Shown in pieces: positions 20,081-60,314 of a DNA stretch of 64,000 nt; within the stretch, counting starts at the first letter, position 1; each line of letters starts with the position of its first letter. The notes under the pieces are model-generated. The model searched no databases and had not been told where the DNA came from. It worked only from the letters and a program-made list of their open reading frames with translations. Origin of the DNA: an uncultured Paraprevotella sp. (GTDB lineage: Bacteria; Bacteroidota; Bacteroidia; Bacteroidales; Bacteroidaceae); the NCBI GenBank assembly GCA_944320765.1, contig CALUIS010000016.1, positions 2,933 to 66,932 of the forward strand. Direction: 5' to 3'. The translations under genes were made by a program, and so were the position numbers.

Positions 20081-20111
20081 GGAAATGATTTGAGAATATG
20101 ACAATGAGGGT

Positions 20112-20161
20112 GTAGCAAAATGAGTTCCTCCACTGCAAGGCGGAGGAACTCATTTTGCTAC
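20112..20161. terminator. Perfect 20-bp inverted repeat between convergent genes (probable bidirectional terminator)
   Basis: GTAGCAAAATGAGTTCCTCC-10 nt-GGAGGAACTCATTTTGCTAC. Confidence 0.7.
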
Positions 20162-44597: not shown

Positions 44598-44616
44598 AAT
44601 ATCATGTTTCCGGGTG

Positions 44617-44624
44617 CAAAGATA
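44617..44624 (-). promoter_or_regulatory. Putative -7 box for prfA
   Basis: TATCTTTG on the minus strand, 19 nt upstream of the corrected ATG. Confidence 0.6.
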
Positions 44625-44821
44625 CACAGAAAAACTGAAAGGGCTTTGCACGTCGGGCTGCAAATGTTTCCAGATTCCGCAGAGGCTGCCGGAGTACTCC
44701 GCGCCAAGTACTGTCGCGGCCTGTGCGGGACGTTTCCCCTGGAGTGGACGGGCGGAGGGGTAAGCGTCGTTCCGGCATCGGGGAGGGCGTGCCGGGATGA
44801 CGCAAAACCAGTGGGATGCGA

Positions 44822-44957
44822 CTGCCCCGCCTGAAAGGGGGGCTGGCCTGAAAGGCCTGAGGGGTCTGACATCCACGGGAACATACCTTGGTAGTATGTC
44901 TTGTAAATGTTAAACCCCTCAGTCGCTTCGCGCCAGCTCCCCTGCAAGGCGGAGCAG
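44822..44957. repeat. REP-like inverted doublet, copy A (solo; inverted relative to B-D)
   Basis: CTGCCCCGCCTGAAAGGGGGGCTGGCCTGAAAGGCCTGAGGGGT-spacer-ACCCCTCAGTCGCTTCGCGCCAGCTCCCCTGCAAGGCGGAGCAG. Confidence 0.9.
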
Positions 44958-45011
44958 GTTTGTGCCGCAATGTCTCGCTACTGGTTGCGCGGCAGGAATG
45001 CCGCACCTCCT

Positions 45012-48000
45012 TTACTGCACGAACACCTTGCGGGCGGACTTCTGGCCGCTGACATGCACCAGGTAGATGCCCGGCTTCAGGGCGTGGCGGAACGAGCCGC
45101 CCGTGGTGCGTTCGGCATGGACGCGTGTGCCGGACGGGTCGTAGAGTGTCACGGTGTCACCCTCGCGCAACCCCTCCACATAGAGGATGCGCCGGCGCAC
45201 GTAGACGTTCAGCGTGCCGGCCGTGTCGTCCGCGATGGACGAGAAGGAGAGGGTGAAGCGTGCCGCGTCGTCCGCCGCTTCCGTGAGGGTGAAGCGGTAG
45301 TCCGTGCGGCGGAGGTCCACCTTCGCGCCCGTCTTGTGGTCGGTCAGCCATACTTCGGTGGCCGTCTCGATGTCCGCCGTCTCTCCCAGGGTCATCGTGT
45401 ATTCCCCGGCCACGGCGCGGATGCCCACCTGCAAGCTGCCCGCCGCGTCCACGGCGTTCATCAGCGAGAAGCGCGTGCCCGTGCGGTTCACGGCATAGAG
45501 CTGCGGCGCGTCGGCCCGCGGGGCCATCATCTTCAGGCCGTCGGCGCCGAGGGTGAAGTCGCCGTCCGTTTCCTCGTTTGTGGGGGAGAAGACGAAGCCG
45601 TCCGCTCCCGTCTCGCCCCACAGGCCGAGGCGGTACTGCTGCAGGTTCACCCCGTTTCCATCTGTTGTTTCGCCGGGGGCTGAAGGCCGCCGGAAGCGCA
45701 GGGACTCCGTCTGGCCGTCGCCGATGACCGCCGTCTGGGTGAAGACGCCCTTGCCGAAGCTGAGCGTGCCGTCCGTCGTGCCGTCCGGACGGGTGGTGGT
45801 GCCGTCCCAGCTCTGCATGGTGAAGTATTGTCCGTCCTGCAGGGTATAGAGGATGTGCGGCAGGTCCATGGCCGGCGTTGTTCCGGTCAACTTGGCCGTC
45901 AGGTCGTAGCCGCTCACCAGATAAGGCAGGCCGAAGAGGTTCCAGCCCATGTTCTCCTTGAAGGTGAATTTCGGCGTGCCGTCCGCGTTTACCGTGTTCT
46001 CGTCGTATTGCGTCAGGGCGACGGTCTTTTCCGTCTCGTCCGCCGTTTCGCTGTAGACGGGCGCCGTGCCGTTTTCCGCTCCGGCGGTGAAGCGGTAGGT
46101 GCCGTCCGTTCCGGCTTTCAGGGCGAAGCCTTGGTTGGCGTTGAAGGAGGTGGCCGATTCGTTCCAGAATTCCGAGTCGGACTCGTGGAAGGCGAAGAGG
46201 CTTTCCGCGCGTTTGGCCCCGTTGTAGGTCTCCGTGCTGTCGGCCTCGATCAGGGGCGTGAAGGCCGTGGCCTTGCCGGCCGCCTCGTCCACCCGGCTGA
46301 TGCCGTCGCGCCGCAGGGCATAAGGCACGGCTGCCAGGTTCCAGCCCGCGCTGAGCGCGCGCTCCGTGGCCACGTAGGGCAGCGACACGTCATGTCCGTT
46401 GCCGTAGAGCGAGGCACCCTCGCGGAGCAGCAGGTAGCCCGGTGTGAAGGGCGTGGTCGTGGTGACGGTGCCGGAGGTGGTCCGGGTGTCGTGGCCTACC
46501 ACGAAGTGGCCGCCTGTGTTCACGTAGACCACCGACCCGGCCACGGGGTAGTGCTTGCCGGCGGCGATGCCGTCACCCTGGACCGTGCTTTGGTTGGCCG
46601 TGGCCAGTTTCCCGTTCTCCGGCACGCTCCAAGTCTCGAAGCAGCCGTTGTCCGGCTTGCCGTTCAGGAGGCGCGGGTTGCCCGCCAGGTCGCGGTCGTG
46701 CCCGGCCAGTTTCATATAGGCCGTGATGTCGTGGTTGCCGTCAGGGTCGATGTCGGCAGACTCCTCGTCCAGCTGGTAGTTCCAGGCCTCGTCCGTCTGG
46801 TTGTGGATGTAGCGGTTCTTTCCCGTTGCATTTTCGCGGTTGTTCAGGTTTGTTCCGGCGTTGATGGTGCCGGTGGCCGTGACGTTCACGATGGTGCCGG
46901 TGGTGCCGGCCGCTCCGTCCACGAACGAGTTGTAGAGGACACCCTCTTCTTCCATCGTCACGTTTCCTTCCACGATGGAGGTGGAGAGCATACCGCGTTG
47001 GCCTATGGTGGCCTGGCCGTCCACCAGGAAGCCGTCCACCACGGAGGTGTTTTTGTTATCTCCTTGCTCGGCTTTGATGGCCAGTCCGCTCACGGTGGAG
47101 TGCTGCCCCTGGCTTTCCATCATGCCGCGCCGTTGTGCCAGCAGTCCGGCCACGGTGTCGGTGGCGGCGGTGTCGGTGGCGGCGGTTTCGCTGCCGTTGT
47201 AGCGTTCGGTGTGCATGCCGCCGTACACTTTCGTGCCGCCCAGCTGCACGTTGAGGCTCGCGACCCGCCCGTCTTGTCCCACGGTGCTTTGGGCGAAGAC
47301 GTAGCCGTATTCGTTCGGGCGGGTGTTGGCGTAGATGCCCGCCAGGTTCACGGCGTCCTGCAGGTCCGTCAGGGCGTTTTCCCACGAAGAGCCGTCGCCC
47401 GCCGTGGTGAGCCGGTCGTCCACGTAGATGATTTGCCGCATCGGCGCGGCGTATTCGTAGGCCCCCACGTCGATGCTTTGGTCCACGAAGCGGGCCGTGC
47501 CGCCCAGGTCGGTTTCGGCCGCCTTGGCCGCGTCGCTTACGGCATCATCCGGGTCTTGTCCGTCCTGGATGAATCCCGGATAGCGGTAGTCTTCCATGAA
47601 ACTTTCATACGGCGTGTCGTCGCCCTGGTCCAGCAGGGCGATGCCCGGGCGGATGTGGTAGTCGCGCGACAGCACGTCGTCGGCGGTCGGATTCACGAAG
47701 TTCGGGCCGTTCACGATGTCGTCGTTGTCCGTTCCGGGAGCGAAGGCCACGTTATGGTTCGTTTCGTTGTCCGTGAGGGTGGAGAGGTGTTGGTTCTTCG
47801 TGTTCTTCCACGCCACGGAGTTCTGCACCGTCGGGCTGCCCGTGAAGTCCGTGCCGTTCTGCGCGAACGTGCCGTTGATGACGGTGGCTGTGGCGTTCTG
47901 TTCCACTGCCAGTCCCGTGCCGCTGTTGTCCGCGAAGAGCACGTTCACCAGCGTATGTCCGCCTTGGCTGCCGCTTTCCACGACGGCACCCTTCCCGGAG

Positions 48001-51000
48001 TCGCGCACCTGCACGTTTTTCAGCGTGACTTTGTTATTCGTCTGGCTGGTGTGGATGCGTATGCCGTCCCCTTTCGTGCCGTCTTCCTTCGCGTTATGGA
48101 AGAGGATGCCTTCCACGAACACTTCCCGTCCGGCTTGCGGGACGTTGATGTCCAGCAGGGTCTCCGTCTCCGCGTCCGGATGGGCGTAGATGACGGTGGG
48201 GTTCGAGAAATCCTGCACCCCTTGTTCGTTGTACGAGCCTCGGATGGAGAGGGTTTGGGCGGAGGACATGGTCGTAGACCCCATGGTGGCGTTGAAGGCC
48301 GTGTTGCCGGCAAAGGTATGCGCGTTGGCATACTCGCCTTGGCGGATCAGTACGGCATTGTAGGGCCAGTTCTTTTTCTCGGTCGTGTTTTGGTCGTCGC
48401 TGGCATTGGCCAGCCCCACGATGGCCCCGCGCAGGTCGCTGGTGGCGTTGGCCCAGTTGAGGCCGTTGGCTTCTCCTGCATCCATCGTCGCCACGTAGAT
48501 GGTGTCCATCTTGTCGAAGGCCAGGTTGTACTGGTACTCGTACAGCCCGATGTCGATGATGCGGTCCATGTCTTGGTTGTCCTCATCTTTCGGCCCGCTG
48601 TAGCGCAGGTAGAGGGAGCCGTCCTCTTTCTCCATGAAAGCGTTGAGGATGGGGCTGTTCGGGTCGTAGGTATCGGTCAGCCTTTCTTTATAAGCACCTT
48701 CAGCCGCCCCGTAATAGTCCGGCACTTCGGCTTCCGAGGTGGGGAAGGCCACGTCCTTGTCCACCACGCCGTCCCCGGCATCCGTCAGGATGGAGATGGA
48801 GCCTGGATTCCAGCGTTCGGCGGAGGAGAAGCCCGCCACGCCGGCCGTGGCGGAGGGGGCGGCGAAGCGCGGGCCGTCCACCGCTCCGTTGTCGGCGGAG
48901 ACGGTGATGTTGTGGTTGCCGGTCGCGTCGGTCTTTCCGTCCGGTTTCTGGCTTTCCGTCCAGTGGTTCTCTTCCGTGGCCGAATAGCGTACGGAGGTGG
49001 TCAGGTTGCGGTGGAAGGATTCCGGGTTGGCCCCGTCGGTATATTCGTTGCCCCAGGCCAAGGTGTTGAGGATGTCCCCATGACGGGCCGTCACGGCATA
49101 TTCGGCCGACTTGTTGCGCACGAGGGTGTTGTTCACCAGCAGGATGCCCGTCTTTTCGTCATCGGAGGACGGGAACACCGCCGCCGCGCCGCCGTCGCCC
49201 GTGGTCTCGTTGTTGGCCCAGAGCGTGTTGAAGGCCTTGAGGCCGTAGTCGCCGCCGTAGACCATCGCGGCACCTCCGCCCAAATAGTTGTTTTCTTCCG
49301 TCTTAGGATCGTCCACCGTGCTGTTGCCCGCCAGCATCGAGCCGAAGAGGCGGAGTCCGGCGTCGTGCACATAGATGGCGTTGCCTATCACGGCGCGGTT
49401 GCGCAGCAGGCGGCAGCGGTTGAGCGTGTATTTCACGCCGCTGGAATAGATGCCGCCGCCGCGTCCCACCACACCGGTGCCTTCCTGCGCGTTTTCGCTT
49501 TCAGCGTAGGCCGTGTTGGCGGTCTGTCCGTCCATGATGGTCAGGCCGTCCAGCGTCACCTCGGCAGCCATATTTTGTGGGATGTCATAGCTTTGGTCGT
49601 TCTGTCCTTTGTTCTCCGTGTCGCTATAGATGACGTGGTAGGCATTCGTCTCTGTGGTGGACACGTTGATGTTGCCCGAGAGGATGCTCTGGTAGCTCAT
49701 CTCCCACGGTTCCAGGATGCCGTTCGAGTTCAGGTCGCTCTGCTCGCGGGCGGCGAGGATGTTTTCGGTGGTGGCATTGGTCTGCCAGTTTACATTGGAG
49801 ACACCCGGTATGGACGTGAGATTTTCATTGTTTTCGTTGCAGATGTAGCCCTCTTTTCCCGAGAATCCGCCGTAGATCTGCACGCCGTAGGGGACGTTGA
49901 AGGAGTTGAGCCGCTGGTCGTTGACGAGGCCCGGCGCGGTATTGTTGTCGCGCTTGTAGGTGGGCTTGTACGTGCCTTCGGCAATCAGGATCTCGAACGT
50001 CTTCTCCCGGGCTTTTTCGTATGTTTTCCTTACTTCGCGGACGTATTGCAGGGCCTCGTCCAGGTGGGAGAACGGGGTGTAGAACGAGCGGCCCAGATAG
50101 TCTTCCACGTTGATGTCGTCTGGAATGCGGTCATCGCGTCCCGTAGCCGCCACGAAGAGTCGGGTGAACCACTTGTTCGTGCTGAGCCGTCCGCCCTCGA
50201 AGGCGAAGGCTCCCACGTCGAGACGATCCATGCCGGTCTGTTCGCGTTCCAGCCGGTTGATGTCGGCGGAGGCGACACCCATGCCCGTCACGAGGCGGGT
50301 CTGGTAGCCCACGGGCATACCCGATTTGATGAGCGGGGAGAAAGCCCGCAGCATGTAGTTCACCTCGTCGGCAAAGTAGTCGTTGGGTTCGCGGGTCATG
50401 CTGGTGTTCTGCTCAAAGGTGGCGGGCAGTTCCGTCTGTTCCACGAAGCAGCTGTTGAAGAGGTAGATTTCCGTGGGGGCGTCGTCGGCTTGCCCGGTCA
50501 GGGTGTGGCCGATGTAGTCGTCGGTGAACCGTGTTTCGGTGACGCCGCTGATGTTCATGTCCGAGCTGGCCTCGTTGCCCCAGATGACGGAGTTGAGGGT
50601 GACGGCCGCGCCGTCCTCCAGGTAGAGGCCGCCACCCGTGTCGTCGGACGTGTTGCCGGCGATGGTGGACGAGATGATGTAGGTGCCGGCGGTGGCGGTG
50701 GGGGCTTCCGCGCCGGTATGCCCGTTGGCGGCGTAGATGCCCGCGCCGTAGGTGGCCTGGTTGTCCTTGACGAGTGTGCCGGAGACGGTCGCGCCCGCCT
50801 CCAGGTAGAGGCCGCCGCCGCTGGTGGCGGTGTTGTCCCGCACGATGCAGTTGCGCACGTGGCCCCATGCCGGCACCACGGCCCCGCCGCCCTTGTCGTT
50901 GTCACGGCCGGAGGAGGTGGCCTGCCCTTCCGTGAGGGTCACGCCGTCGAGGATGGTGGTCAGGCCCTGCGTGTCGCCCTCCGGTTTCTCCCCGAAGGTC

Positions 51001-54000
51001 ACGGCGTGGTGCCCGTTCACCGTCTGTCCGTCGCTGAGCGTCACCACGGGGCTGAGCAGGGTGGGGTAGTTGCGGATGTCGCGGCAGTCGGGGTTGGAGG
51101 TCTCCTGCCAGTTGTCCTCCGTCTCTTTGTAGCCGCCCATGAGGGTCACGCCGTAAGGCACGGTGTAGGTGTAGCTTTGCGGGTCGTTGGGGTCGCTCAG
51201 GTCGTCCTCGTTGGGATGGTAGACGAACGGGTTTTCTTTCTGGTTGTAGCCCGCCACCTTCACGATGGCGCGGTGGCCTGTCCCCCCGGCCACGTACTGT
51301 CCCGCCGCGTCGAGGATGTCCTGCAGCTTTTCGGCGCAGGCGGCCTGGTCGAGGCTGCCGCCGCTCCGCGTGCCGCGTCCCGCTTGGGTGACGTAGTAGG
51401 TGGCGGTGGTGATGCCGTTCTCCGTAGTCGTATTATGTTGGATATTGGCCGTATTGTCCAGCTCGTAGGCTCCCACGTCCACGGTGCAGTCCTTGATGCG
51501 GTCGGTGAAGTCCACGTCGGTTTCGGGCAGTGCGCTGCCTTCGTAGCCGTGGTTGACGCACCAGTTCCCCACTTTCAGGCGGTAGTTATTGTTGGTTTGG
51601 GCGTTGGCATCGGCAAAAGGATATTCCAAATAAGATCCGTTTTGGCTGTCCACCAGTTTGTTCCGGATGCCTTCGCTAAGTTGGGTTGCTGTATGTATGT
51701 AACAGTTGTAAGAAAGTTGGAAGGTACCTTCGCTGGTGGACTTGATGGCGAGGCCCGTGTTTCCGTAAAACAGGCAGTTGTAGATTTCCAAGTTGGACTT
51801 GATGCCGGTTGTTGTCCATTGGGTCAGTCCGCCGCCGTTGCCGTAGTTGGTTGTGCGGTTGTAGGCAATGGTGTTGTTGTAGAACTTGGCGTTCTCAATG
51901 AAAATGCCTCCGCCATCGACCTGGGACGAATTATTGGCCACCAACAAGTTGTAGCCTTTTCCTGCAAGCATGTACATGCCGCCGCCATAGGATTCATTGC
52001 CGTTGCAGGCGTTGTTGATGACGAAGCAGTTGATGACCTCACTGTAGTGGTCAAGATGGGTAGAGCTGTCGCCGTCGCAATAGATGCCGCCTCCGCGGTT
52101 TCGACTGGCACTGCCGTTGTAGTTTTGGGTCACTACGCAGTTGCGCAATTTCACGCCGCGGAACATGCGGACACCGGCCCCTCCGTCGCGGTTGGCAATA
52201 TAGTTCTTGTAAAAACCGTGTCGGATGGTGAACCCGTCCCAAGACGCTCCTTCATATTCTACATATCGGGGATCGTAGTTTTGGTTCTTTTCGTAACGTG
52301 TGGTGTTGGTGGTGGCATCATTATCATTTAAGTTGAAGTTGGGGTCACTTCCGGCTGTGCTTCCGGGAGCTTTTGTGGGGAGGCAGACATCCGGCTGGAA
52401 CAAGACGGGTTTGCGTAGCACGCCGTCCGATGTCGCGACATTATCGAAACGGCTTGAAATGTACGGGGTATTGCCGTCCCACCGGTCAAACATGGATTGC
52501 TCTTGTATTTGCAGGATGGTTTCATATTTAGCCCTGTCCGCTTCGGTGGCACCTTCGCGCAAAGGGATGTACTGCGACATTAGGGCTTTGCGCTCGTCCA
52601 TACCCGGACACCCTTCGTTGGGGAAACCACCATAGACATCCACGCGGTCGCGGATGACGTAACCTTTGTAGTCCGTGTAGATGCCTGCGGCCACCCATAC
52701 TTGCCTAATTTGTCCAGAAGGATCTGCTGCGGAGGCCTTCTCCACGGCATATTGCAGGCCGCTGATGTATCGTTCTTTTCGGTTATTGGTAATAGTGGGA
52801 TATTTGTTTGCCTTAATGAAGTCCTTGCTGGCACCGGACTGTTCGGCATAGGGGCGATTTATCTCATCGTAAAAGCCGATATACCGTGAGTTTGTAGTGA
52901 GAATCTTGTTTCCTCCTTCTGTGATGTATTGGTTATTGTCCAAATCGTAGATATAATTCCCCGCGATGGCGTTCTCCCAAGAAGAGCCGTCCATTTTGCC
53001 TGCGCCTTCGGGCGTGACGTACCACACTGTTCCTGTTTCCGGCAGTTCCGCCTCGTAGGCACCGAGGTCGGTCATGCCGCCGAGGTTGCGGGAGAGGCCG
53101 GCGATGTCTTGGGGGATAGGCATACTGGATGTCTGATTGATGACTTGGTTGGCAGCCTCCACTGAGCTGGTGAGCGGCTTGAAGGAAGAGTAACCGCCGC
53201 GGTAGGTGTCGAAGCCGAGGGTTGCGCCCTTGCCGTTCGTCGGGTTCTGGAAGTGCTCGGCAGTGACGTCGAGCGGTACGTTGTTGGAGCTGGCCAGCGT
53301 GTTGCCCATGGAGAGGCAGTTGGTGGCGGAGGCGTCTCCGCTATGCTGCGCATAGCTTCCTCCCGCATTGTTGGCGAAGGTGACATGGCGCAGGGTCAGG
53401 GCTCCGGCGATGACCGAAGCGGCGTTGGCATCGGCGTTCGTGTTGTTGTTCACTACGCAGTTGTCCATGTTTACAGTGGAGCCGGTTCCGCCGTAGATGG
53501 CCGCGCCCTGGTTCGCGCTGCAGTTCTCGATGATGCACCGCCGGAGCGTCACTGTGGCGTTTTCTTCGATGAGGAGGCCGCCGCCCTGCAGGTAGACGGC
53601 CTCGCCCGCCGCGTTGCCGTTGATGATGTGGAAGCCCTCGAAGGTGACTTTCGCGCCGGGCTGCACGTGGATGCAGTGGTAGAGGCCGTCGGCCCGGTCG
53701 CGTCCGTCCGGGTTGCCGTTGATGACGGAGCGGTAGGTGAGCGGGTCGTGGTCGTGGCTGTCGTTGTCCGCGAAACCGCCCTTGACGGTCAGGGGCAGCC
53801 CGCTCTGTATGGCCGGCACCCCGATGGTGGCCGACTTCGGGTCGTCGCTGGCGAAGGTGTAGCGCGGATAGATGGTCTCGCTCTGCAACACGTAGATTTC
53901 CAACTGGTTGACGCCTTGGGCTTCCATTTCGGCCTTCGTCAGGTCCGCCATATAGCTGATGGCCTCGTTGACGGAGCGGTAGCCCCTCTCCCAGCTGCTG

Positions 54001-56888
54001 CCGTCGTGTTCCGGTTCCTGGCAGGACACGTCCACATAGAGGCGGAGGGTGCTGCCATTCTTTTCAGGGACCAATTGCACCGGGTCGATGCGGTGTGCGC
54101 CGAGGGCCGGCTTGCTGTGCAGCGGGTCGCCCTTGAGGTCCACCTGCGGGATGAGGCTCACGCCGGAGGGCATGGCGAGGGGCGGCAAGCCCTGGGCGCG
54201 GAGGTTGCTGCCCTGCACGGCTTGCCAGAGGTAGTCGATGTCGGTCCAGTTTTCCTGGATGCCGTATTCCGTTCTCAGCGATGCCGCGTCGGCGAAGTTG
54301 GTGCTTCCGCCCGCCGGGTCGGAAAAGTCCGGCGCGAGCAGGGTGGTGTTCCCGGCTTCCGGCACGTTGTTGTCGTCGCTCAGGCGCAGCACGTCCTCCT
54401 GCAGGATGTTGTACCACACCGCGCTGTTGTAGCCCGACACGGCGGAGTTGTAGAACCGCACTTTGTCTGTGGCCGGGTTGAGGGCGTAGAAGGGCGCGTT
54501 GTCCGACGCGCCGTTATGGTTGTTCCACAGCACGGAGTTCACCACCAGCCCGTATTCGTAGAGGTAGAGGCCGCCCGTCTTGGAGGCGTCGCTCATGGCC
54601 GCGTCCGTGGCGCGGGGGGTGTAGTTGTTCACGATGGTGCTTTGCACCACGGTGCCGCCCCGGTAGCAGTACACCGCCCCGTTCTCCAGGCTCTGGTTGT
54701 TGCTCACCACGCTGGTGGAGAGGGTCAGCTGGCCGGGGTATCCGCCCGCGGGACAGTTCATGAACAACGCCCCGCCGTTGTGGGCCGAGTTGTTGGCCAT
54801 CATGCAGCGCAACACCTCGCCCCGCGTGTCGGCGTACACCGCCCCGCCATGGCCGGTAACGGCGCTGTTGTTGTAGATGAGGCAGCCTTCCACGCGCCCG
54901 CCTTTCAGGTAGATGCCGCCGCCATGGTTCTGTGCGCGGTTCTCCTTCACCACGCAGTTGACCAGCGCGGTGCGTTCGCCTTGCATGTACACGCCGCCGC
55001 CCAGTCCGTCCGTGCCGCTGTTTCCTGAGGCATAGCCGCCCCGGATGGTGACGCCGCACAGCTCGGTGCGCAACCCGAACTCACCCTCGCCTTCGCCAAG
55101 AGGGGCGAACCACACCACGTGGCAGGATTCGCTGGTGGGGGTCCAGCTGTTGTTGCTCGCGCTCCACGTGCAGTCGCCGTTGTAGTTGTAGCCTTCGAGG
55201 ATGGTCTCGCCGCCGTTGGCGTAGGCCCACGGGCGGTCTCCCCTTGTCAGCTTGTCGCGGGTCATGTCTGCCGGTTCCTCCGGGAATCCGCCGTAGACGC
55301 TGATGCCGTCGCGCATCCGGAAGAAGACGGTGGCCGTGTTGCCTGCCACGAGCTGTCGTGTGGGCCGGTAGGTGCCGGCGGCCACCCACACCTCTCCCCG
55401 TCCGCCCATGTCGGCCAGGTCGTCAATGGCTTGCTGCAGGTCTCCCATGGCCTGGCTCCAGCTGGTGCCGTTGCCCGTTCCTCCCGCCTTGACGTAGCGG
55501 ATGTGTCCGGCCTCCACCTGGCGGTACTCATACGCGCCGATGTCGGGGAGCGTGCCGGAGGGGCGTGCGGTGCCGATGGGGTCCAGGGCCAGCACGCCTC
55601 GGACGGCGGCGGGGAGGTCCGCGATGGCGGCTCCCCGGTCAATCAGCACCGAACCGTGGCGCAGCTGGTAGCTTTGGTCGGGGTAGGGGCTTTCCTGCCA
55701 GTTGAAGTCCTGGTCGAAGCCCATCTTGGGCGAGGGGTCGTCGAAGAGGGGCGGCTGGTCGTCCAGGTCGAAGTTGTTCGCTCCGGCATAGATGTTGCCG
55801 TAGCCGTCCGCCGCGCCTTTGTCGGCTTCGGGATAGGCGCAGTGCGACATGCCGGGCTTGTTCGCCTCGGTCTCGTAGAGGGCGGAGTTGCCCCAGATGA
55901 CTGTGTTGTACACTTGTATGCTGCCATCGGCGGGGTCGGTCAGCTCCACGGCAGCCGCCGTGTTGCGCGTCACGGTGCTCTGCACCACGCGGGCCTCGGG
56001 CGACATGAGGATGCCGCCGTTCTCGTTGTTGGCCACGACGGTGTTCACCACCATGCCGCGCCCGGCCAGGTAGATGCCGCCGCCGTCGTTCTGTTGCGAG
56101 GAGCGCGTGCCCGCCGCGTTGTTCATCAGGTAACATGACTCGATGGTGGAGGCGTCCGATCCGGCACCGTCATGCACGTAGATGGCGCCGCCCGTGGGAG
56201 CGTAGTTGTAGAGGAAGAAGCAGTGGCGGATGTGGTAGGTGCCGCTGCCGCTCACCACTACCGCGCCGCCAGGGCCGTAGCGGTTGGCATCGGTGTTGTG
56301 GGCCGCCGCGATGGTGAGTCCGTCAATCATCGTGGCTTCCGTGCCGTCGGTGGCGAGGGTGAACACGTGCGGGGCGTTGTCAGCCCGCAGGTCGTCCGGG
56401 TCGTCGGTGGGGAAGATGAGCGACGGGCCTGCCGGGAAGTACTTGTCGTCCTTGTCCCGGTCGGCCACGACGACGGAGATGTAGCGGAACTCGAAGCGGT
56501 CGCCCCGCCGTGCGCGGTTGTCCGGCGTCTCGGTGGTTTCCGTGCCGCTCTCGCCCGAGAAGCCGCCGTAGATTTTCACGCCGGCGGGGACGGCGAAGCC
56601 CTCTTCGGACGGTACGACATAGACTTTCTCGCGACTGTCCACCTTCTCATAGCCCATGAGGCGGATTTCGTCGCCGGCCTCCGCCTGCCGCAGGGCCTCA
56701 TAGAGCGTGGTGGCGTCCTGCCAGGAAGAGCCGTTTCCCTTGCTGGCCTCGTTCAGCGGTTTGACGTAATAGATGTTTTGTGCCATGGCCGTCATGGCGC
56801 AGCATAAAAAGAGGCAAGCCGCGAGGAAAGCGGCCTTGCGTGTCGTTCCCGTTGCTGAATTCATCTTATATAAGTCCTTCATCTTCAT
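45012..56888 (-). CDS. Giant (3958 aa) secreted surface protein: eight tandem right-handed beta-helix (Pmp/pectin-lyase-like) modules with choice-of-anchor-Q-like ends and a T9SS-like CTD
   Basis: Signal peptide (AMA-Q). Eight repeats start YV...G.G.SW..A...L..A and end D.GAYE-like, with many GGG(I/L/V)Y motifs. C-terminal VTLYDPSG...LKPGIYLV...KVFVQ. Confidence 0.85.
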   Translation of the reverse strand: MKMKDLYKMNSATGTTRKAAFLAACLFLCCAMTAMAQNIYYVKPLNEASKGNGSSWQDATTLYEALRQAEAGDEIRLMGYEKVDSREKVYVVPSEEGFAVPAGVKIYGGFSGESGTETTETPDNRARRGDRFEFRYISVVVADRDKDDKYFPAGPSLIFPTDDPDDLRADNAPHVFTLATDGTEATMIDGLTIAAAHNTDANRYGPGGAVVVSGSGTYHIRHCFFLYNYAPTGGAIYVHDGAGSDASTIESCYLMNNAAGTRSSQQNDGGGIYLAGRGMVVNTVVANNENGGILMSPEARVVQSTVTRNTAAAVELTDPADGSIQVYNTVIWGNSALYETEANKPGMSHCAYPEADKGAADGYGNIYAGANNFDLDDQPPLFDDPSPKMGFDQDFNWQESPYPDQSYQLRHGSVLIDRGAAIADLPAAVRGVLALDPIGTARPSGTLPDIGAYEYRQVEAGHIRYVKAGGTGNGTSWSQAMGDLQQAIDDLADMGGRGEVWVAAGTYRPTRQLVAGNTATVFFRMRDGISVYGGFPEEPADMTRDKLTRGDRPWAYANGGETILEGYNYNGDCTWSASNNSWTPTSESCHVVWFAPLGEGEGEFGLRTELCGVTIRGGYASGNSGTDGLGGGVYMQGERTALVNCVVKENRAQNHGGGIYLKGGRVEGCLIYNNSAVTGHGGAVYADTRGEVLRCMMANNSAHNGGALFMNCPAGGYPGQLTLSTSVVSNNQSLENGAVYCYRGGTVVQSTIVNNYTPRATDAAMSDASKTGGLYLYEYGLVVNSVLWNNHNGASDNAPFYALNPATDKVRFYNSAVSGYNSAVWYNILQEDVLRLSDDNNVPEAGNTTLLAPDFSDPAGGSTNFADAASLRTEYGIQENWTDIDYLWQAVQGSNLRAQGLPPLAMPSGVSLIPQVDLKGDPLHSKPALGAHRIDPVQLVPEKNGSTLRLYVDVSCQEPEHDGSSWERGYRSVNEAISYMADLTKAEMEAQGVNQLEIYVLQSETIYPRYTFASDDPKSATIGVPAIQSGLPLTVKGGFADNDSHDHDPLTYRSVINGNPDGRDRADGLYHCIHVQPGAKVTFEGFHIINGNAAGEAVYLQGGGLLIEENATVTLRRCIIENCSANQGAAIYGGTGSTVNMDNCVVNNNTNADANAASVIAGALTLRHVTFANNAGGSYAQHSGDASATNCLSMGNTLASSNNVPLDVTAEHFQNPTNGKGATLGFDTYRGGYSSFKPLTSSVEAANQVINQTSSMPIPQDIAGLSRNLGGMTDLGAYEAELPETGTVWYVTPEGAGKMDGSSWENAIAGNYIYDLDNNQYITEGGNKILTTNSRYIGFYDEINRPYAEQSGASKDFIKANKYPTITNNRKERYISGLQYAVEKASAADPSGQIRQVWVAAGIYTDYKGYVIRDRVDVYGGFPNEGCPGMDERKALMSQYIPLREGATEADRAKYETILQIQEQSMFDRWDGNTPYISSRFDNVATSDGVLRKPVLFQPDVCLPTKAPGSTAGSDPNFNLNDNDATTNTTRYEKNQNYDPRYVEYEGASWDGFTIRHGFYKNYIANRDGGAGVRMFRGVKLRNCVVTQNYNGSASRNRGGGIYCDGDSSTHLDHYSEVINCFVINNACNGNESYGGGMYMLAGKGYNLLVANNSSQVDGGGIFIENAKFYNNTIAYNRTTNYGNGGGLTQWTTTGIKSNLEIYNCLFYGNTGLAIKSTSEGTFQLSYNCYIHTATQLSEGIRNKLVDSQNGSYLEYPFADANAQTNNNYRLKVGNWCVNHGYEGSALPETDVDFTDRIKDCTVDVGAYELDNTANIQHNTTTENGITTATYYVTQAGRGTRSGGSLDQAACAEKLQDILDAAGQYVAGGTGHRAIVKVAGYNQKENPFVYHPNEDDLSDPNDPQSYTYTVPYGVTLMGGYKETEDNWQETSNPDCRDIRNYPTLLSPVVTLSDGQTVNGHHAVTFGEKPEGDTQGLTTILDGVTLTEGQATSSGRDNDKGGGAVVPAWGHVRNCIVRDNTATSGGGLYLEAGATVSGTLVKDNQATYGAGIYAANGHTGAEAPTATAGTYIISSTIAGNTSDDTGGGLYLEDGAAVTLNSVIWGNEASSDMNISGVTETRFTDDYIGHTLTGQADDAPTEIYLFNSCFVEQTELPATFEQNTSMTREPNDYFADEVNYMLRAFSPLIKSGMPVGYQTRLVTGMGVASADINRLEREQTGMDRLDVGAFAFEGGRLSTNKWFTRLFVAATGRDDRIPDDINVEDYLGRSFYTPFSHLDEALQYVREVRKTYEKAREKTFEILIAEGTYKPTYKRDNNTAPGLVNDQRLNSFNVPYGVQIYGGFSGKEGYICNENNENLTSIPGVSNVNWQTNATTENILAAREQSDLNSNGILEPWEMSYQSILSGNINVSTTETNAYHVIYSDTENKGQNDQSYDIPQNMAAEVTLDGLTIMDGQTANTAYAESENAQEGTGVVGRGGGIYSSGVKYTLNRCRLLRNRAVIGNAIYVHDAGLRLFGSMLAGNSTVDDPKTEENNYLGGGAAMVYGGDYGLKAFNTLWANNETTGDGGAAAVFPSSDDEKTGILLVNNTLVRNKSAEYAVTARHGDILNTLAWGNEYTDGANPESFHRNLTTSVRYSATEENHWTESQKPDGKTDATGNHNITVSADNGAVDGPRFAAPSATAGVAGFSSAERWNPGSISILTDAGDGVVDKDVAFPTSEAEVPDYYGAAEGAYKERLTDTYDPNSPILNAFMEKEDGSLYLRYSGPKDEDNQDMDRIIDIGLYEYQYNLAFDKMDTIYVATMDAGEANGLNWANATSDLRGAIVGLANASDDQNTTEKKNWPYNAVLIRQGEYANAHTFAGNTAFNATMGSTTMSSAQTLSIRGSYNEQGVQDFSNPTVIYAHPDAETETLLDINVPQAGREVFVEGILFHNAKEDGTKGDGIRIHTSQTNNKVTLKNVQVRDSGKGAVVESGSQGGHTLVNVLFADNSGTGLAVEQNATATVINGTFAQNGTDFTGSPTVQNSVAWKNTKNQHLSTLTDNETNHNVAFAPGTDNDDIVNGPNFVNPTADDVLSRDYHIRPGIALLDQGDDTPYESFMEDYRYPGFIQDGQDPDDAVSDAAKAAETDLGGTARFVDQSIDVGAYEYAAPMRQIIYVDDRLTTAGDGSSWENALTDLQDAVNLAGIYANTRPNEYGYVFAQSTVGQDGRVASLNVQLGGTKVYGGMHTERYNGSETAATDTAATDTVAGLLAQRRGMMESQGQHSTVSGLAIKAEQGDNKNTSVVDGFLVDGQATIGQRGMLSTSIVEGNVTMEEEGVLYNSFVDGAAGTTGTIVNVTATGTINAGTNLNNRENATGKNRYIHNQTDEAWNYQLDEESADIDPDGNHDITAYMKLAGHDRDLAGNPRLLNGKPDNGCFETWSVPENGKLATANQSTVQGDGIAAGKHYPVAGSVVYVNTGGHFVVGHDTRTTSGTVTTTTPFTPGYLLLREGASLYGNGHDVSLPYVATERALSAGWNLAAVPYALRRDGISRVDEAAGKATAFTPLIEADSTETYNGAKRAESLFAFHESDSEFWNESATSFNANQGFALKAGTDGTYRFTAGAENGTAPVYSETADETEKTVALTQYDENTVNADGTPKFTFKENMGWNLFGLPYLVSGYDLTAKLTGTTPAMDLPHILYTLQDGQYFTMQSWDGTTTRPDGTTDGTLSFGKGVFTQTAVIGDGQTESLRFRRPSAPGETTDGNGVNLQQYRLGLWGETGADGFVFSPTNEETDGDFTLGADGLKMMAPRADAPQLYAVNRTGTRFSLMNAVDAAGSLQVGIRAVAGEYTMTLGETADIETATEVWLTDHKTGAKVDLRRTDYRFTLTEAADDAARFTLSFSSIADDTAGTLNVYVRRRILYVEGLREGDTVTLYDPSGTRVHAERTTGGSFRHALKPGIYLVHVSGQKSARKVFVQ

Positions 56889-56936
56889 GTCTCGTTCCTA
56901 TTGTTTTCTTCCTCTATTATATTCAGACTTTGAATT

Positions 56937-56972
56937 GCTCCCCTGCGAAGCGGGGCAGTTTTTGGCCGCGGG
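56937..56972. repeat. Truncated extra copy of the REP right arm plus flank
   Basis: GCTCCCCTGCGAAGCGGGGCAGTTTTTGGCCGCGGG resembles 57132-57167 GCCCCCCTGCGAGGCGGGGCAGTTTTTGGTTGCGGG. Confidence 0.8.
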
Positions 56973-56987
56973 CTTCCGTTCGGCGAT

Positions 56988-57153
56988 TGCTCCGCCTTGT
57001 AGGGGAGCTGGCCCGTAGGGCCTGAGGGGTTTAACGCGCACGTCAGCAAACTTTTAAAGTCAGCTTTCGTGTTTGTTCCCCTCGTGGGCGTTTTCCTCGT
57101 GGGCGTGAGACCCCCCAGCCGCTTCGCGGCAGCCCCCCTGCGAGGCGGGGCAG
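56988..57153. repeat. REP-like inverted doublet, copy B (left direct repeat of the DUF559 unit)
   Basis: 166 bp; 5 mismatches versus copy C by manual alignment. Confidence 0.95.
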
Positions 57154-57590
57154 TTTTTGGTTGCGGGTTCTTTCTTCTCCTCGAACTCCGTTTGTGACAG
57201 TTCCGCCCGACGTTGCGATACGGCTGTCTGGATTTGTCGGACTACGACAGACATGTTGCGGAACACATCTTCGTTTTCGTAGCGGAGAATCCGGATGCCA
57301 TGTTCGCGATAAAGGTAGTCACTCCTTTGTCGGTCGTGTTCCAGTCCGTCGGGGGAATAGTGGCCGTCTCCGTCCAGTTCTATGCCCAGCCGCAGCTCGT
57401 GGCAGTAGAAGTCCAGGATGTATGGCCCCACGCCATATTGTCTTCTCCATCGGCTACCGTTCATTTGTTTGCCGCGCAGCAATTTCCAGAGTGTCGCTTC
57501 GGCCGGGGTCAGGTTGTGCCGCAGCTCTTTCCGGCGGGCTTTGCCGTCGTATGGATTGTCTGTCTGGTATTTGCTTCGGTCGTATGTCAT
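57060..57590 (-). CDS. DUF559 endonuclease-domain protein (Vsr-like fold)
   Basis: RKELRHNLTPAEATLWKLLR, WRRQYGVGPYILDFYC, LGIELDGDGH, HDRQRSDYL and GIRILRYEN. The last ~31 codons lie within repeat B. Confidence 0.9.
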   Translation of the reverse strand: MTYDRSKYQTDNPYDGKARRKELRHNLTPAEATLWKLLRGKQMNGSRWRRQYGVGPYILDFYCHELRLGIELDGDGHYSPDGLEHDRQRSDYLYREHGIRILRYENEDVFRNMSVVVRQIQTAVSQRRAELSQTEFEEKKEPATKNCPASQGGCREAAGGSHAHEENAHEGNKHES

Positions 57591-57616
57591 CTTACGTTTT
57601 GTTTTGTTTTTATAAC

Positions 57617-57782
57617 TGCTCCGCCTTGTAGGGGAGCTGGCCCGTAGGGCCTGAGGGGTTTGACATTCACGTCAGCAAACTTTTAAAGTCAGCTTTCGTG
57701 TTTGTTCCCCTCGTGGGCGTTTTCCTCGTGGGTGTGAGACCCCCCAGCCGCTTCGCGGCAGCCCCCCTGCGAGGCGGGGCAG
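57617..57782. repeat. REP-like inverted doublet, copy C (right direct repeat of the DUF559 unit)
   Basis: Near-identical to copy B; ends 26 nt before the DUF559 ATG. Confidence 0.95.
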
Positions 57783-57805
57783 TCTTTTTGTCCCTGTGGG
57801 TGGTT

Positions 57806-58900
57806 TCAGTTCCCGCTGCCCGTCGGCAGGCCGGTGAGAGTGACGCGCAGGCGGTAGTAGGCCACGTCGTCCGGATTGTACTGGTCCGGCGTGTATGTAC
57901 GGTCAATGGAGTACGTTCGTGTCTTGTCCGCTGTTTGCTCCATAATTTGGATTTGGTAGTTTATCGTTCCGCCGCCAGGCTGGAAGATGTAGGTGTCCTC
58001 GCGGCCATAGACGGCGGTGCCGGCATTCGCGTCCCCGTCATCGTTGAACAGGAGCGTTTGTTCGTTTCCTGTACTATTCTGTGTCGGCTTGAACACATAT
58101 CCTTCTTGGGGCAGGCCGCTGAGTATGATGGCATTCAGGAACGCGTTGGGGTGCGCCTCGTGGAAGGTTTCAGAGAAGTTCCACTGGATGTCCACCTTGG
58201 CCGCCACATGGTGAAGCGTACCGGTCACCTCGCTTTGCTTCTGTCCGTAGTTTTTAACGGGGATGGCTCCGTTCACCACACCTTCGGCTGCATTGTAAGA
58301 GGAATAGAGGTCGCGAAGCGAGATGGAATGGTTGTCGAATGACAGGGTGATGGCCTCTATCGCGGCCTTGCTCTTTTTCTTAGTTGTTCCGTCTTCCGAA
58401 AGCTCGTCCGGTTGGGGCAGGCCACCGTACACATCTTCCGCGCCCAAGTCGTCCGCACTGGCGATGATGTAGCAGTATGCGTCCGTCGCGCCGTCGATGA
58501 GCGGCAGGTTGATTTGGTCGGTGTAGGAGTACACATATACGTTCTGTCCCGTGCCGTCCGTGGTCCAGCTGTCCCGGATGCCGGAGTACTCGCTGAACAG
58601 CACTTCCTTGGTGTCGCCGTCGGCATCCGTGAAGGCCGTGTAGACGTACAGGTAGTCCGGCAGCGGCAGGCGCGCGTCGCTGCCCGGGTCGCCCGGCGAG
58701 CGTTTGAGGGCTTCCGAGGCCGGGATGCTGATTTGCAGCGGCACGTAGCGGTCCTCGTAGGCCGGCGCGGGCACTTCGTCGTCGTGTTGGCAGGCGGTGA
58801 GCGCCGTCAGGAGGGCGAGCAGGGCCAGTAGTCCTGCCGCGCCTTCCGTCAGTCGCTTCTTATATAAATAGTTTAGTGATGTGTGATGCATGATGTCCAT
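57806..58900 (-). CDS. Lipoprotein, probable type V pilus accessory subunit
   Basis: Lipobox LTAC-QHDDE, then LQISIP...KRSPGDPG (basic cleavage-type site) and LHHVAAKVDI. Lies in an operon with pilin-like genes. Confidence 0.6.
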   Translation of the reverse strand: MDIMHHTSLNYLYKKRLTEGAAGLLALLALLTALTACQHDDEVPAPAYEDRYVPLQISIPASEALKRSPGDPGSDARLPLPDYLYVYTAFTDADGDTKEVLFSEYSGIRDSWTTDGTGQNVYVYSYTDQINLPLIDGATDAYCYIIASADDLGAEDVYGGLPQPDELSEDGTTKKKSKAAIEAITLSFDNHSISLRDLYSSYNAAEGVVNGAIPVKNYGQKQSEVTGTLHHVAAKVDIQWNFSETFHEAHPNAFLNAIILSGLPQEGYVFKPTQNSTGNEQTLLFNDDGDANAGTAVYGREDTYIFQPGGGTINYQIQIMEQTADKTRTYSIDRTYTPDQYNPDDVAYYRLRVTLTGLPTGSGN

Positions 58901-58912
58901 TCTCCTTGTCGT

Positions 58913-60052
58913 TTAGATTTCCACTTCGTGGTTGCCGCCGGGCTTCCAGTCCAGTTCCACGCTCACGCCCACCGACTGGTCCGAGGTGACCACCTGGCCG
59001 TTGTCGTTGAGGCGCGCCTTGATGACCTTCAGGCGGCCGGCGGGCAGGGGTGTCTTCACGTGGAGGGTGCTGCGGGTGGTGCTGCCGTCCGCCAGGGTGG
59101 CGTACACCTCCATGCGCCAGAGGCCCTCGCCGCTGGTGGACACGTCGCCGTTGCCGCGCGTCTCCGGCCCGTCGGCCGAGGGGAAGCACACGGCATGGAA
59201 GGCGATGAGTCCCGCCTCGTCGGTGCGCAGCGTGCGCACCACGGGCGAGCGGTCGTAGCCCGTGAAGGTGCTGTCGGAGGGGGTGTAGCCCGTGGCCATG
59301 TCGCGCACGTAGGCCGTGAGGGCTGCGGGCTGCGCCCCGGCGGTGGGCTGTAGCACGAGGATGGCGGCACTGTTCTGCATGCCCAGCGAGAGGCTGAACT
59401 GCTGGCTCTGCCCTGCCGAGACTTCCATTTCCGCCGTGGTGGAGAAGATGCCCGTGGTCTGGCTGTCCACCGTGTCGGCTTCGGCCTGCTGCACGCGCAG
59501 GGTGGCGAAGCGGTCGGCGGCGGCATATTGCAGGCTGCCCATGTCGGCGGTGTTGGCCAGCGCGGCGTGCTCGTAGGCCCGTGGTTCCACGTAGAGGGTG
59601 AACGAGGCTTGCCCGGCGTTCACCGTGTAGCGGTCGTGCCGGTAGAGCGACTTGTCGTCGCGGTCGAAGAACGAGAGGTCGATGTCTCGTGCCTGGTTGG
59701 TGAACACGCCTGCGAGCCGTTCTTCCAGCCGTGCGGCCAGCTGTTGTTCGGCGGCCGTGGTCAGTTCCGTCTGCAGTTCCGTGCGCAGGTCGAGGGACAG
59801 GCGCAGGTCGTAGCGCAGGGCCACGTCCGCGCCGCACTTCGAGAGGTCCTCGTTGATGCAGCCTGTGAGGGCGAGCGCGGCGGCCGCAGCCAGTCCGGCC
59901 CGTCGCAGGGGGCGTGGCACCTTCCACCGCCTCGTGCTGTCGGCGCGTGGCGGGAGCTGCTCTGTGCGGGAGTGCCTTGTTCCGATGTCAGCTCTCTTGA
60001 TGTTCATTTCCTGTATTTCTTTTTGTCCTTTGGTGGGCGGCGGGCCGGCCAA
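58913..60052 (-). CDS. FimB/Mfa2-like fimbrial lipoprotein; probable start 60007
   Basis: LALTGCINEDLSKC lipobox typical of Mfa2-like proteins, IDLSFFD, and a C-terminal VSVELDWKPGGNHEVEI strand. Confidence 0.7.
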   Translation of the reverse strand: MAGPPPTKGQKEIQEMNIKRADIGTRHSRTEQLPPRADSTRRWKVPRPLRRAGLAAAAALALTGCINEDLSKCGADVALRYDLRLSLDLRTELQTELTTAAEQQLAARLEERLAGVFTNQARDIDLSFFDRDDKSLYRHDRYTVNAGQASFTLYVEPRAYEHAALANTADMGSLQYAAADRFATLRVQQAEADTVDSQTTGIFSTTAEMEVSAGQSQQFSLSLGMQNSAAILVLQPTAGAQPAALTAYVRDMATGYTPSDSTFTGYDRSPVVRTLRTDEAGLIAFHAVCFPSADGPETRGNGDVSTSGEGLWRMEVYATLADGSTTRSTLHVKTPLPAGRLKVIKARLNDNGQVVTSDQSVGVSVELDWKPGGNHEVEI

Positions 60053-60064
60053 GGCCCGCCGCCC
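60035..60064. other. Perfect 12-bp GC hairpin in the leader of the Mfa2-like gene
   Basis: GGGCGGCGGGCC-GGCCAA-GGCCCGCCGCCC; no U tract in the sense direction. Confidence 0.6.
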
Positions 60065-60101
60065 TGTCAGCTGTTTCCAGCTGTTTCCCTTTTGGGGTGT
60101 G

Positions 60102-60274
60102 AAAACTGCTCCGCCTCGTAGGGGAGCTGGCCCGTAGGGCCTGAGGGGTTTGACGCGAACGTCAGCATTCTTTTGAAGTCCGCTTCTGTGGGTGTTTCCC
60201 CTCGTGGTGGTTACCGTGGGTGTGAGACCCCTCAGTCGCTTCGCGACAGCTCCCCTGCAAGGCGGAGCAGTTTT
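60102..60274. repeat. REP-like inverted doublet, copy D (solo)
   Basis: Outer arms AAAACTGCTCCGCCT / AGGCGGAGCAGTTTT are perfectly inverted. The left arm is nearly identical to B/C; the spacer is diverged but homologous. Confidence 0.92.
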
Positions 60275-60314
60275 TTGTGTGTGGCTGTCGCTTTACCTAT
60301 TTATATATAGGGCG

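Follow-up and report, generated by a model that had tools for sequence, protein, structure and literature searches.

The 64,000-nt window analysed here (contig C16, positions 2933-66932) belongs to the genome of an uncultured Paraprevotella sp., referred to as G000, an assembly of 2.93 Mb in 48 contigs with 56% GC and a marker completeness of 99.98%. Between 44.8 and 60.3 kb of this window lie four doublets of inverted arms, designated copies A to D. These copies belong to a genome-wide family of nested palindromes that resembles the doublets of repetitive extragenic palindromes (REPs) known as REPINs and the bacterial interspersed mosaic elements (BIMEs). On balance, the family is probably non-autonomous, and its probable role is that of a two-way terminator or of a hairpin between cistrons. 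It appears to be REP/BIME-like but new, and our literature search found no published description of it.

Distribution of the Family in the Genome

The initial annotation of the window had described the doublets as confined to its surface-protein locus and had proposed a search for the arm throughout the genome. That search, carried out with an iterated nhmmer profile of the arm, contradicts the confinement, as it returned 90 matches in G000 that fall into 48 loci on 25 contigs. Copies are mostly double-armed, the 82 full arms forming 34 inverted doublets and 14 single arms, while about 8 further matches are partial and cover the first hairpin only. The usual element measures 138-142 bp (52-nt arm, 36-39-nt spacer, 52-nt arm), and copy A is of this kind; elements with a longer spacer comprise B, C, and D (169-171 bp) together with three others (177-185 bp).

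Clustering is modest. A permutation that placed elements in intergenic regions other than divergent ones makes four copies in 16 kb only marginally unusual (P = 0.075), and nine gaps of 7 kb or less between neighbours were counted against 4.7 expected (P = 0.036). An Rfam scan of window positions 44000-61000 gave no match at E <= 1, and phage and plasmid collections contained no match to the family. [quoted passage not shown]

Arm Architecture and Covariation

Each arm consists of two small GC-rich hairpins, HP1 and HP2, and a conserved GAGGGGTYTCAC tail. The 8-bp stem of HP1 (GCYCC-G-CCT / AGG-GGRGC) contains a bulged G and is closed by three bases of the form GAA or YGY (GAA, TGC, TGT, and similar), and HP2 has a 5-bp stem closed by a triloop. 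Two arm types are distinguished by HP2, which reads GGCCC-NNN-GGGCC or GGCC-TGAAA-GGCC in type 1 and GYCGC-GAA-GCGRC in type 2; the latter contains the GCGAAGC heptamer, an unusually stable DNA mini-hairpin. The HP2 stem marks the arm type in all 34 G000 doublets, every one of which pairs a type 1 with a type 2 arm, and HP2 position 29 is C in one arm and G in the other in 31 of 33 distinct doublets. The HP2 sequences of the two types show no mutual complementarity. TGAAA and GAA are the commonest loops. GGGGTCTGAC resembles the beginning of the Tn3 inverted repeat, a likeness that was dismissed as a ten-base coincidence that faces inward here.

Covariation was assessed in 99 arms, drawn from four genomes and aligned to a covariance model, with 500 shuffles and slid-column controls; the alignment is fitted to the model, and the arms are nearly gapless, so the effect of fitting is small. 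Paired cells amount to 98.2% against 84.7% in the shuffles, and two-sided changes to 153 cells against 52.5, with none of the 500 shuffles reaching as high. Sliding the partner columns lowers pairing to 47-66% and double changes to at most 23. Six of the 13 pairs covary. Among the 80 full G000 arms, pair 5-24 of HP1 is G-C in 63 and C-G in 12, and pair 7-22 is T-A in 64 and C-G in 10; in HP2, pair 27-37 is G-C in 37, T-A in 29, and C-G in 8, and pair 29-35 is C-G in 42 and G-C in 38, with no arm unpaired.

Minimum-free-energy folds return long hairpins with side stems, in which one arm pairs with the other. However, the two arms of a doublet frequently carry opposed pairs, as with 5-24 (G-C against C-G in 9 of 33 doublets of G000 and 24 of 38 of the related genomes G017 and G044) and 7-22 (T-A against C-G in 7 of 33 G000 doublets), and HP2 differs between arms in nearly all doublets. 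Because HP1 and HP2 differ between the arms and yet pair within each arm, the conserved objects are four local hairpins and not the energetically preferred arm-to-arm stem.

The spacer is itself palindromic, with the form CCCACGG..CATAC-loop-GTATG..TTGTGGAC, and its polarity is fixed; the CCCACGG tail and spacer side goes with the type 1 arm in 27 of the 28 classifiable arms genome-wide. Only three type 2 arms in G000 carry a CCCACG tail, namely those of B, C, and D, which makes these copies a chimeric, locus-specific subfamily with a long spacer. Another element, C32:7857, has a B-D-like long spacer with the canonical linkage. The subfamily would have arisen either by inversion of the centre relative to the outer modules or by exchange of the HP2 modules.

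Gene Context and Putative Role in Termination

Genes were called with a simple dicodon-scored caller of open reading frames (ORFs), which gave 2142 genes and 89% coding sequence in G000. By these calls all 34 doublets are intergenic. Convergent gene pairs surround 11 of them, tandem pairs 21, and a divergent pair 1, and the remaining one lies at a contig end; genome-wide, 14% of intergenic regions are convergent and 14% divergent. The doublets stand 10-100 nt downstream of stop codons, in either orientation, and in tandem contexts they adjoin the upstream stop (median about 40 nt) and lie farther from the next start. The same placement is found in G017 and G044, and over the three genomes only 3 of 75 elements are in divergent contexts. 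No orientation bias relative to transcription was detected (7:13, 6:3, and 7:10 in three genomes).

The element ends are rich in T. The 12 nt past the terminal hairpin hold 5.3 T on average, compared with 3.3 in the intergenic background, and 56% of ends have at least six T in these 12 nt, compared with 15%; such ends occur regardless of whether a transcript is expected to exit there. In a consensus scan, the right end of B, that of C, and a neighbouring solo hairpin come out as terminator-like on the plus strand. By position and build, the element would most likely act as a two-way terminator, stabilise 3' ends, or serve as an intercistronic attenuator.

Carriers, Relatives, and the Full-Length Element

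A pattern scan covered 185,579 species genomes. The carriers named here are among the matches listed, and more exist: G017 (BRZ_KA__bin9) and G044 (BRZ_EQ__bin131), both labelled uncultured Paraprevotella sp. and sister species of G000, and Bacteroides sp. GD17. Apart from GD17, which is an isolate, the carriers are metagenome-assembled genomes (MAGs). Across the 31 genomes that represent the genus in the comparison, only G000, G017, and G044 carry the family in abundance; G016 and G006 have one copy each, and 26 of the 31 have none. An evenly drawn sample of 150 further genomes of the order, nearly all from other genera, yielded weak matches in two only, which belong to two other genera and share the arm design: a GC hairpin is followed by one that reads GCCGC-GAA-GCGGC or CCCC-GAA-GGGG and by GAGGGGT.

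The arms of GD17 have diverged but keep the two hairpins. An arm variant of this isolate nests an extra GGC-GAA-GCC mini-hairpin in the HP1 loop. Its related doublets (L100, L108; NZ_JBCEZS010000006.1) occupy the junctions of a cluster of Mfa-like fimbrillin and DUF6261 genes, and true Mfa-like Pfam matches were obtained at this locus only.

The most numerous and youngest copies are those of G017 and G044, where a 139-bp core has a median pairwise identity of 94-95%, compared with 77% in G000. In these sister species the core is enclosed in a constant outer layer, which gives a full element of about 182 bp with the structure GAGGGTGTAKCAAAA-CCTGCGAGAAGS-[core]-TA-TTTTGMTACACCCTC. The 15-bp outer inverted repeats are present in 47 copies of G017 and G044 and are degenerate in A to D. 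No direct repeats flank any of the 34 G000 doublets or these 47 copies, which agrees with the absence of target-site duplication that had been noted for A to D. The flanks of the 47 copies are often inverted-complementary, and those in G044 are frequently other repeated hairpin motifs, forming a BIME-like mosaic. At several G044 loci (L063, L064, L072-L075, L081, and L082), copies abut the motifs GGCATACGCAATAGTGCGAGTAT and CTCCTATCCCATAAATTGTCATTT with fixed junctions, and the core occurs in both orientations between these motifs.

Turnover Between Species and Strains

Most insertion sites are common to G017 and G044, with flanks 95-100% identical, and three differ despite flanks of 97-99% identity. 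In one of these, the element of G017 corresponds to a 24-nt C8-ACAA-G10 hairpin in G044 (L050/L160); at the others, G044 has either clustered repeats of another REP family or 180 nt of unrelated DNA. Towards G000, the site C18:47803-47844, which is occupied by the full element in G017 and G044, retains the outer repeat in G000 around 21 nt of unrelated sequence, and C1:6015 is a single arm in G000 and a doublet in G044. Minimal hairpins, made of the outer repeat and one HP1, occur at C4:68359-68418, at C9:85011, and in the window (Table 1); they look like products of collapse between the short GCTCC direct repeats of the two HP1 stems, or like progenitors. The orthologous copies at C9:40562 of G000 and L055 of G017 share 79% identity, whereas the copy in G017 matches its own paralogues at 93%, a relationship that would imply homogenisation or re-insertion, given that the copy is closer to paralogues than to its orthologue.

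Strains were compared, as the initial annotation had suggested, and the contigs used were metagenome contigs with identical LpxD or DUF559 proteins. Insertion sites proved only partly variable, for B, C, D, and the DUF559 gene are present in every strain contig read, and copy A is polymorphic, being present in four contigs and absent from three in which the whole region past the giant 3958-aa gene has been replaced. One contig without copy A (L032:7640-7700) has AACTGCCCCGCCTTGCAGG and then an unrelated hairpin, an arrangement that amounts to half an HP1 fused to other sequence. The arms themselves are exchanged: in L026 the type 2 arm of D is wholly swapped for a variant nearly matching the single arm C32:3656, and in L027 the original and the variant stand in tandem. 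True arm-to-arm conversion is seen in L036, where the type 2 HP2 of copy A has taken its partner's type 1 sequence.

Identity between strains changes abruptly at the elements. The 657-aa gene shows 45-70% identity, which rises to 95-100% within D; the 361-aa gene shows 45-80% in its 3' half, which rises to 99-100% at C; just past B, at the 5' end of the 3958-aa gene, identity falls to about 70-86%. The block formed by C, DUF559, and B is a 100% conserved island between strains. The surrounding mosaic was read in L023-L027 (window positions 57806-62288 and 45012-56888), where identity between strains is 45-85% for the 5' end of the 3958-aa gene, for the 657-aa gene, and for the 361-aa gene in its 3' half, compared with 99-100% for both the 364-aa gene and the C-DUF559-B block.

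The Four Copies in the Window and Their Neighbours

The doublets of the window were found where the initial annotation had placed them, each with two inverted arms of about 52 nt around a spacer, and the gene calls bear out their location at gene junctions (Table 1). All eight arms are mutually inverted repeats of 48-62 nt with 77-90% complementarity; read in their own orientation, they follow the common pattern AACTGCYCCGCC-loop-GGGGRGCTG-(13-nt hairpin)-CTGRGGGGTYTNAC. The reported difference between tails continuing GGGGTTT and tails continuing GGGGTCT..CCACG is also present. The first 44 kb, described as empty, hold no full arm, but they do hold the minimal relative, whose perfect 20-bp stem (GTAGCAAAATGAGTTCCTCC / GGAGGAACTCATTTTGCTAC) is followed by TTATTTTG and which looks like a strong terminator.

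Table 1. Members of the repeat family and the associated ORF in the window (positions counted from its first nucleotide).
Feature	Position	Strand	Description
Minimal family relative	20108-20161	+	Outer repeat GGGTGTAGCAAAA / TTTTGCTAC around one HP1-like hairpin
Copy A with degenerate outer layer	44797-44975	+	Putatively corresponds to the outer repeat GAGGGTGTAKCAAAA...TTTTGMTACACCCTC of full-length copies
Copy A	44820-44959	+	Canonical 140-bp doublet; 36-nt palindromic spacer
Solo HP1-type hairpin	56937-56960	+	T run after the hairpin; 25 nt from B
Copy B	56985-57155	+	171-bp chimeric long-spacer doublet; 3' end of the DUF559 ORF enters the right arm
DUF559 ORF	57060-57590	-	176 aa, Vsr-like endonuclease fold; between C and B
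Copy C	57614-57784	+	171-bp long-spacer doublet; junction of 361-aa gene stop and DUF559 start
Copy D	60104-60272	+	169-bp long-spacer doublet; junction of 657-aa gene stop and 364-aa gene start

Copy A has the stop of the 3958-aa gene on one side and the start of prfA on the other, and is ordered as a type 1 arm (GGCC-TGAAA-GGCC), the spacer, and a type 2 arm (GGCGC-GAA-GCGAC). Its outer layer was matched to the full-length consensus, a weak match that makes the correspondence tentative. Spacers in B to D are 66-69 nt long, compared with 36 nt in A. B and C share 96% identity, with D at about 84% to both, and a repeat search of the window returns the three as one 171-nt direct-repeat family. 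Whether A is flipped relative to them, as had been claimed, depends on the module considered: by tail and spacer it is, while by HP2 type all four copies read type 1 and then type 2 on the plus strand. Conversion of the second arm of D does not hold, since the right arm of D is the family consensus and it is B and C that share derived compensatory changes.

The DUF559 gene between C and B had been viewed as the unit from which the doublets spread locally. It is the single PF04480 match in G000. Its homologues are "endonuclease domain-containing proteins" of about 125-132 aa found in many phyla, and residues from about 125 to 176 are therefore a run-on encoded by repeat B (about 44-50 codons), the stop of the homologues being missing. 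G017 and G044 have no DUF559 gene, their only matches being to this repeat-encoded tail. The nearest relative, 75% identical and 132 aa long, lies on a syntenic metagenome scaffold (L211) where the long-spacer subfamily occupies every gene junction, with two copies before DUF559 and one right after its stop. The gene would then be an old passenger between two copies and not the source of the family. Local duplication, the other half of the earlier proposal, is borne out by the B-D subfamily and by L211; DUF559 as the source is contradicted by its single copy, its absence from G017 and G044, and the remoteness of most of the 48 loci.

The giant ORF beside copy A (window 45012-56888, minus strand; 3958 aa) varies from 3926 to 4067 aa across strains and has no Pfam match at E <= 0.001. 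The label "pilus" given to genes of the window was abandoned, as it has no Pfam support and only the L211 orthologue gives a sub-threshold Mfa2 hint; these genes are named here variable surface-protein-like. Elsewhere in the assembly, four short contigs (C45-C48, 2.5-10 kb) have 39-41% GC compared with 56% in the remainder, and may represent a foreign element or binning contamination.

Possible Origins and Mobility

If the doublets were REPINs proper, a REP-associated tyrosine transposase (RAYT, a Y1 HUH enzyme; PF01797) would mobilise them, as their inverted REP-dimer architecture with a structured spacer might suggest; heterodimers and nested dimers are described for REP families (PMC3733652). 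G017 does encode a RAYT-like protein (L181:2664-3206, 180 aa, 35 bits to PF01797). However, this ORF (L181:2200-3600; G017:C1, about 21.7-23.1 kb) is flanked by 200-bp repeats of another REP family, GCGGGGGATTTGCAATCCCCCGC and TGCGGATTCGGAAATCCGCA, which is nearly absent from G000, and no doublet arm lies within 3 kb; the locus is a classical REPtron, unrelated to the doublets. Neither G000, for all its completeness, nor G044, both of them MAGs, has a PF01797 match; the only other carriers of this domain in the genus, G011 and G043, lack the repeat family. There is, moreover, no fixed GTAG or CGTC tag, GTAG being seen only within the loops of a minority of arms, and mobilisation by a RAYT is decidedly unlikely. 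A classical MITE derived from a DDE insertion sequence (IS), with the 15-bp GAGGGTGTAKCAAAA repeats as transposase binding sites, would account for the well-defined terminal repeats, for the uniform 182 bp of the full-length G017 and G044 copies, and for the patchiness of the family in the genus, and the MITE clusters of Bacteroidota are many in the census (PMC11602168). We nevertheless consider it unlikely, because the 47 copies show no target-site duplication of any length and have flanks that tend to inverted complementarity, because the phage and plasmid collections gave no match, and because internal hairpins that covary are not required of such an element. The elements might have been the ends of a known IS family, and no such IS was found: no G000 ORF is bracketed by the outer repeats or by arms, the other carriers having been examined in part. 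Between close G000 elements there is no transposase or integrase, only AAA_14/DUF4143, DUF4595, HAD hydrolase, QueA, OprB, DUF3575, and outer-membrane protein barrel genes, and the ORFs between G044 doublets gave no matches. The co-oriented gene-plus-repeat units of the window locus and of L211, with DUF559 as a small, promoter-less, unrelated gene in the array and a structure kept more than its sequence, recall the attC-like sites of an integrase-less cassette array (CALIN). Against this, the best TIGR02249 score for an integron integrase is 79 bits, well under the cut-off of 265, the elements are dispersed over the contigs beside core genes in both orientations and form a co-oriented array only in B-D and L211, and R''/R' core sites were not recognised by eye; an origin of this kind is very improbable. 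Equally remote is a selfish unit of DUF559 nuclease and repeat as the source of the local doublets: the gene is bracketed by nearly identical direct copies here and in the same manner in L211, and the block it forms with C and B stays constant among strains while its neighbours vary, but a single gene faces 48 repeat loci, the sister species have the family without it, and its homologues are ordinary endonuclease-domain proteins.

A more substantial alternative is that the elements are host-functional hairpins only, that is, two-way terminators or intercistronic RNA-processing sites multiplied by local duplication, recombination, and gene conversion and not by a transposition-like process. Placement behind stops, a hairpin and T tract at both ends, minimal hairpins with the same outer repeat at terminator positions, arms swapped between strains, and doublets that occupy all junctions within fimbrial or surface-protein clusters of three taxa all fit this account, as does the fact that every comparison of a filled with an empty site is a replacement. 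It explains less well why copies 94-95% identical sit at dozens of unlinked loci in G017 and G044 while 26 of the 31 genomes have none, which is the pattern of a burst, and a plain terminator needs neither 140-180 bp nor two arm types nor an outer repeat; we regard it as possible, though improbable. Comparably tentative, and if anything more speculative, is the idea that the family spreads by hairpin-templated copying without a RAYT or any transposase, overwriting terminator palindromes, and has been co-opted as punctuation of surface clusters and as anchors for allele swaps. The suggestion of anchors for swaps of hypervariable alleles derives from the jumps in strain identity at D, C, and B, and related doublets stand at junctions of surface or fimbrial clusters in this species, in L211, and at the fimbrillin locus of GD17.

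We favour a non-autonomous REPIN/BIME-like family, which would spread or be homogenised while single-stranded, driven by a trans-acting factor or by hairpin-templated copying. The element would enter the centre of existing palindromes and replace the interior of a terminator hairpin without target-site duplication; once placed, it would serve as a two-way hairpin barrier with one of the functions proposed above. The B-D subfamily would punctuate the variable surface-protein cluster, with DUF559 as its passenger.

Several observations weigh against this view. No mobilising enzyme was found, although MAG assemblies could miss a transposase flanked by repeats, and GD17 is the sole carrier that is not a MAG. 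The comparisons of filled and empty sites, which covered copy A among strains, three loci of G017 against G000, and three of G017 against G044, yielded no clean empty site but only replacements or unalignable spacers, so that the turnover could be due, without transposition, to gene conversion or to ordinary recombination. As to function, the role in termination or at the RNA level is argued from position and build, the local genes are on the minus strand, and B and C have no T run on that strand. G-T and A-C mismatches in the stems are about equally frequent (about 11 each in G000, which are small numbers) and give no sign of selection at the RNA level, and the compensatory changes of a quasi-palindrome can arise by template switching without selection.

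Relation to Known Repeat Families

The closest parallels are the GTAG- or CGTC-tagged REP dimers, REPINs, and BIMEs of Proteobacteria (Di Nocera et al. 2013, PMC3733652; Bertels and Rainey 2011, PMC3116915), which are likewise extragenic, GC-rich pairs of inverted palindromes around a structured spacer. As in BIMEs, with their Y and Z palindromic units, the doublet is a heterodimer of two unit types; nesting in longer palindromes, location at gene 3' ends and convergent junctions, lineage-specific abundance, and the lack of target-site duplication are further shared traits. Di Nocera et al. (2013) described homodimers, heterodimers, and nested dimers of REPs, including CGTC REPs without a dedicated transposase (PMC3733652), a condition that the present family resembles. 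In contrast to REPs and BIMEs, whose unit is one stem-loop of 20-40 nt, the arm here comprises two hairpins and a conserved tail in about 52 nt, carries neither tag, has no associated RAYT, is enclosed in a 15-bp outer repeat, and resides in an uncultured gut Bacteroidales host. The same authors reported doubly palindromic terminal inverted repeats (TIRs) of RAYT-like "TIRYT" genes (PMC3733652). These "TIRtron" repeats are also long, dimer-forming, and moderately abundant; they often hold a GGGGWSAS motif, which the GGGGTYTCAC tail does not fit, and no Y1 gene is flanked by arms of the family.

The Correia/NEMIS elements of Neisseria and the ERIC/IRU elements of Enterobacteria are MITEs palindromic over their whole length, imperfect palindromes of 100-200 bp in transcribed intergenic DNA, with terminal inverted repeats, reported effects on termination and RNA processing, and presence/absence polymorphism among strains. 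Unlike Correia elements, which duplicate a TA target, the present family shows no duplication, and neither group is known to be built, as this family is, of covarying mini-hairpins of two obligatory types. Bidirectional intrinsic terminators share with it a GC-rich hairpin right after stops, with an A tract on one side and a T tract on the other, a build matched exactly by the minimal relatives in the window and at C4:68359-68418. The full elements differ from such terminators in their length of 140-182 bp, in being repeats 77-95% identical to one another, in their two arm types, and in their turnover between close relatives.

Conclusions

REP/BIME-type families have been studied at length in Proteobacteria, and scarcely any description exists for gut Bacteroidales. 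The recent burst in two sister species without an associated RAYT offers a tractable case for the study of how palindromes spread without a transposase, and the family poses the question of its effect on operon expression and on allele exchange in surface-protein loci. For annotation, it explains run-on ORFs such as the tail of DUF559 and marks likely transcript ends. A cultured carrier, Bacteroides sp. GD17, opens the way to experiments.

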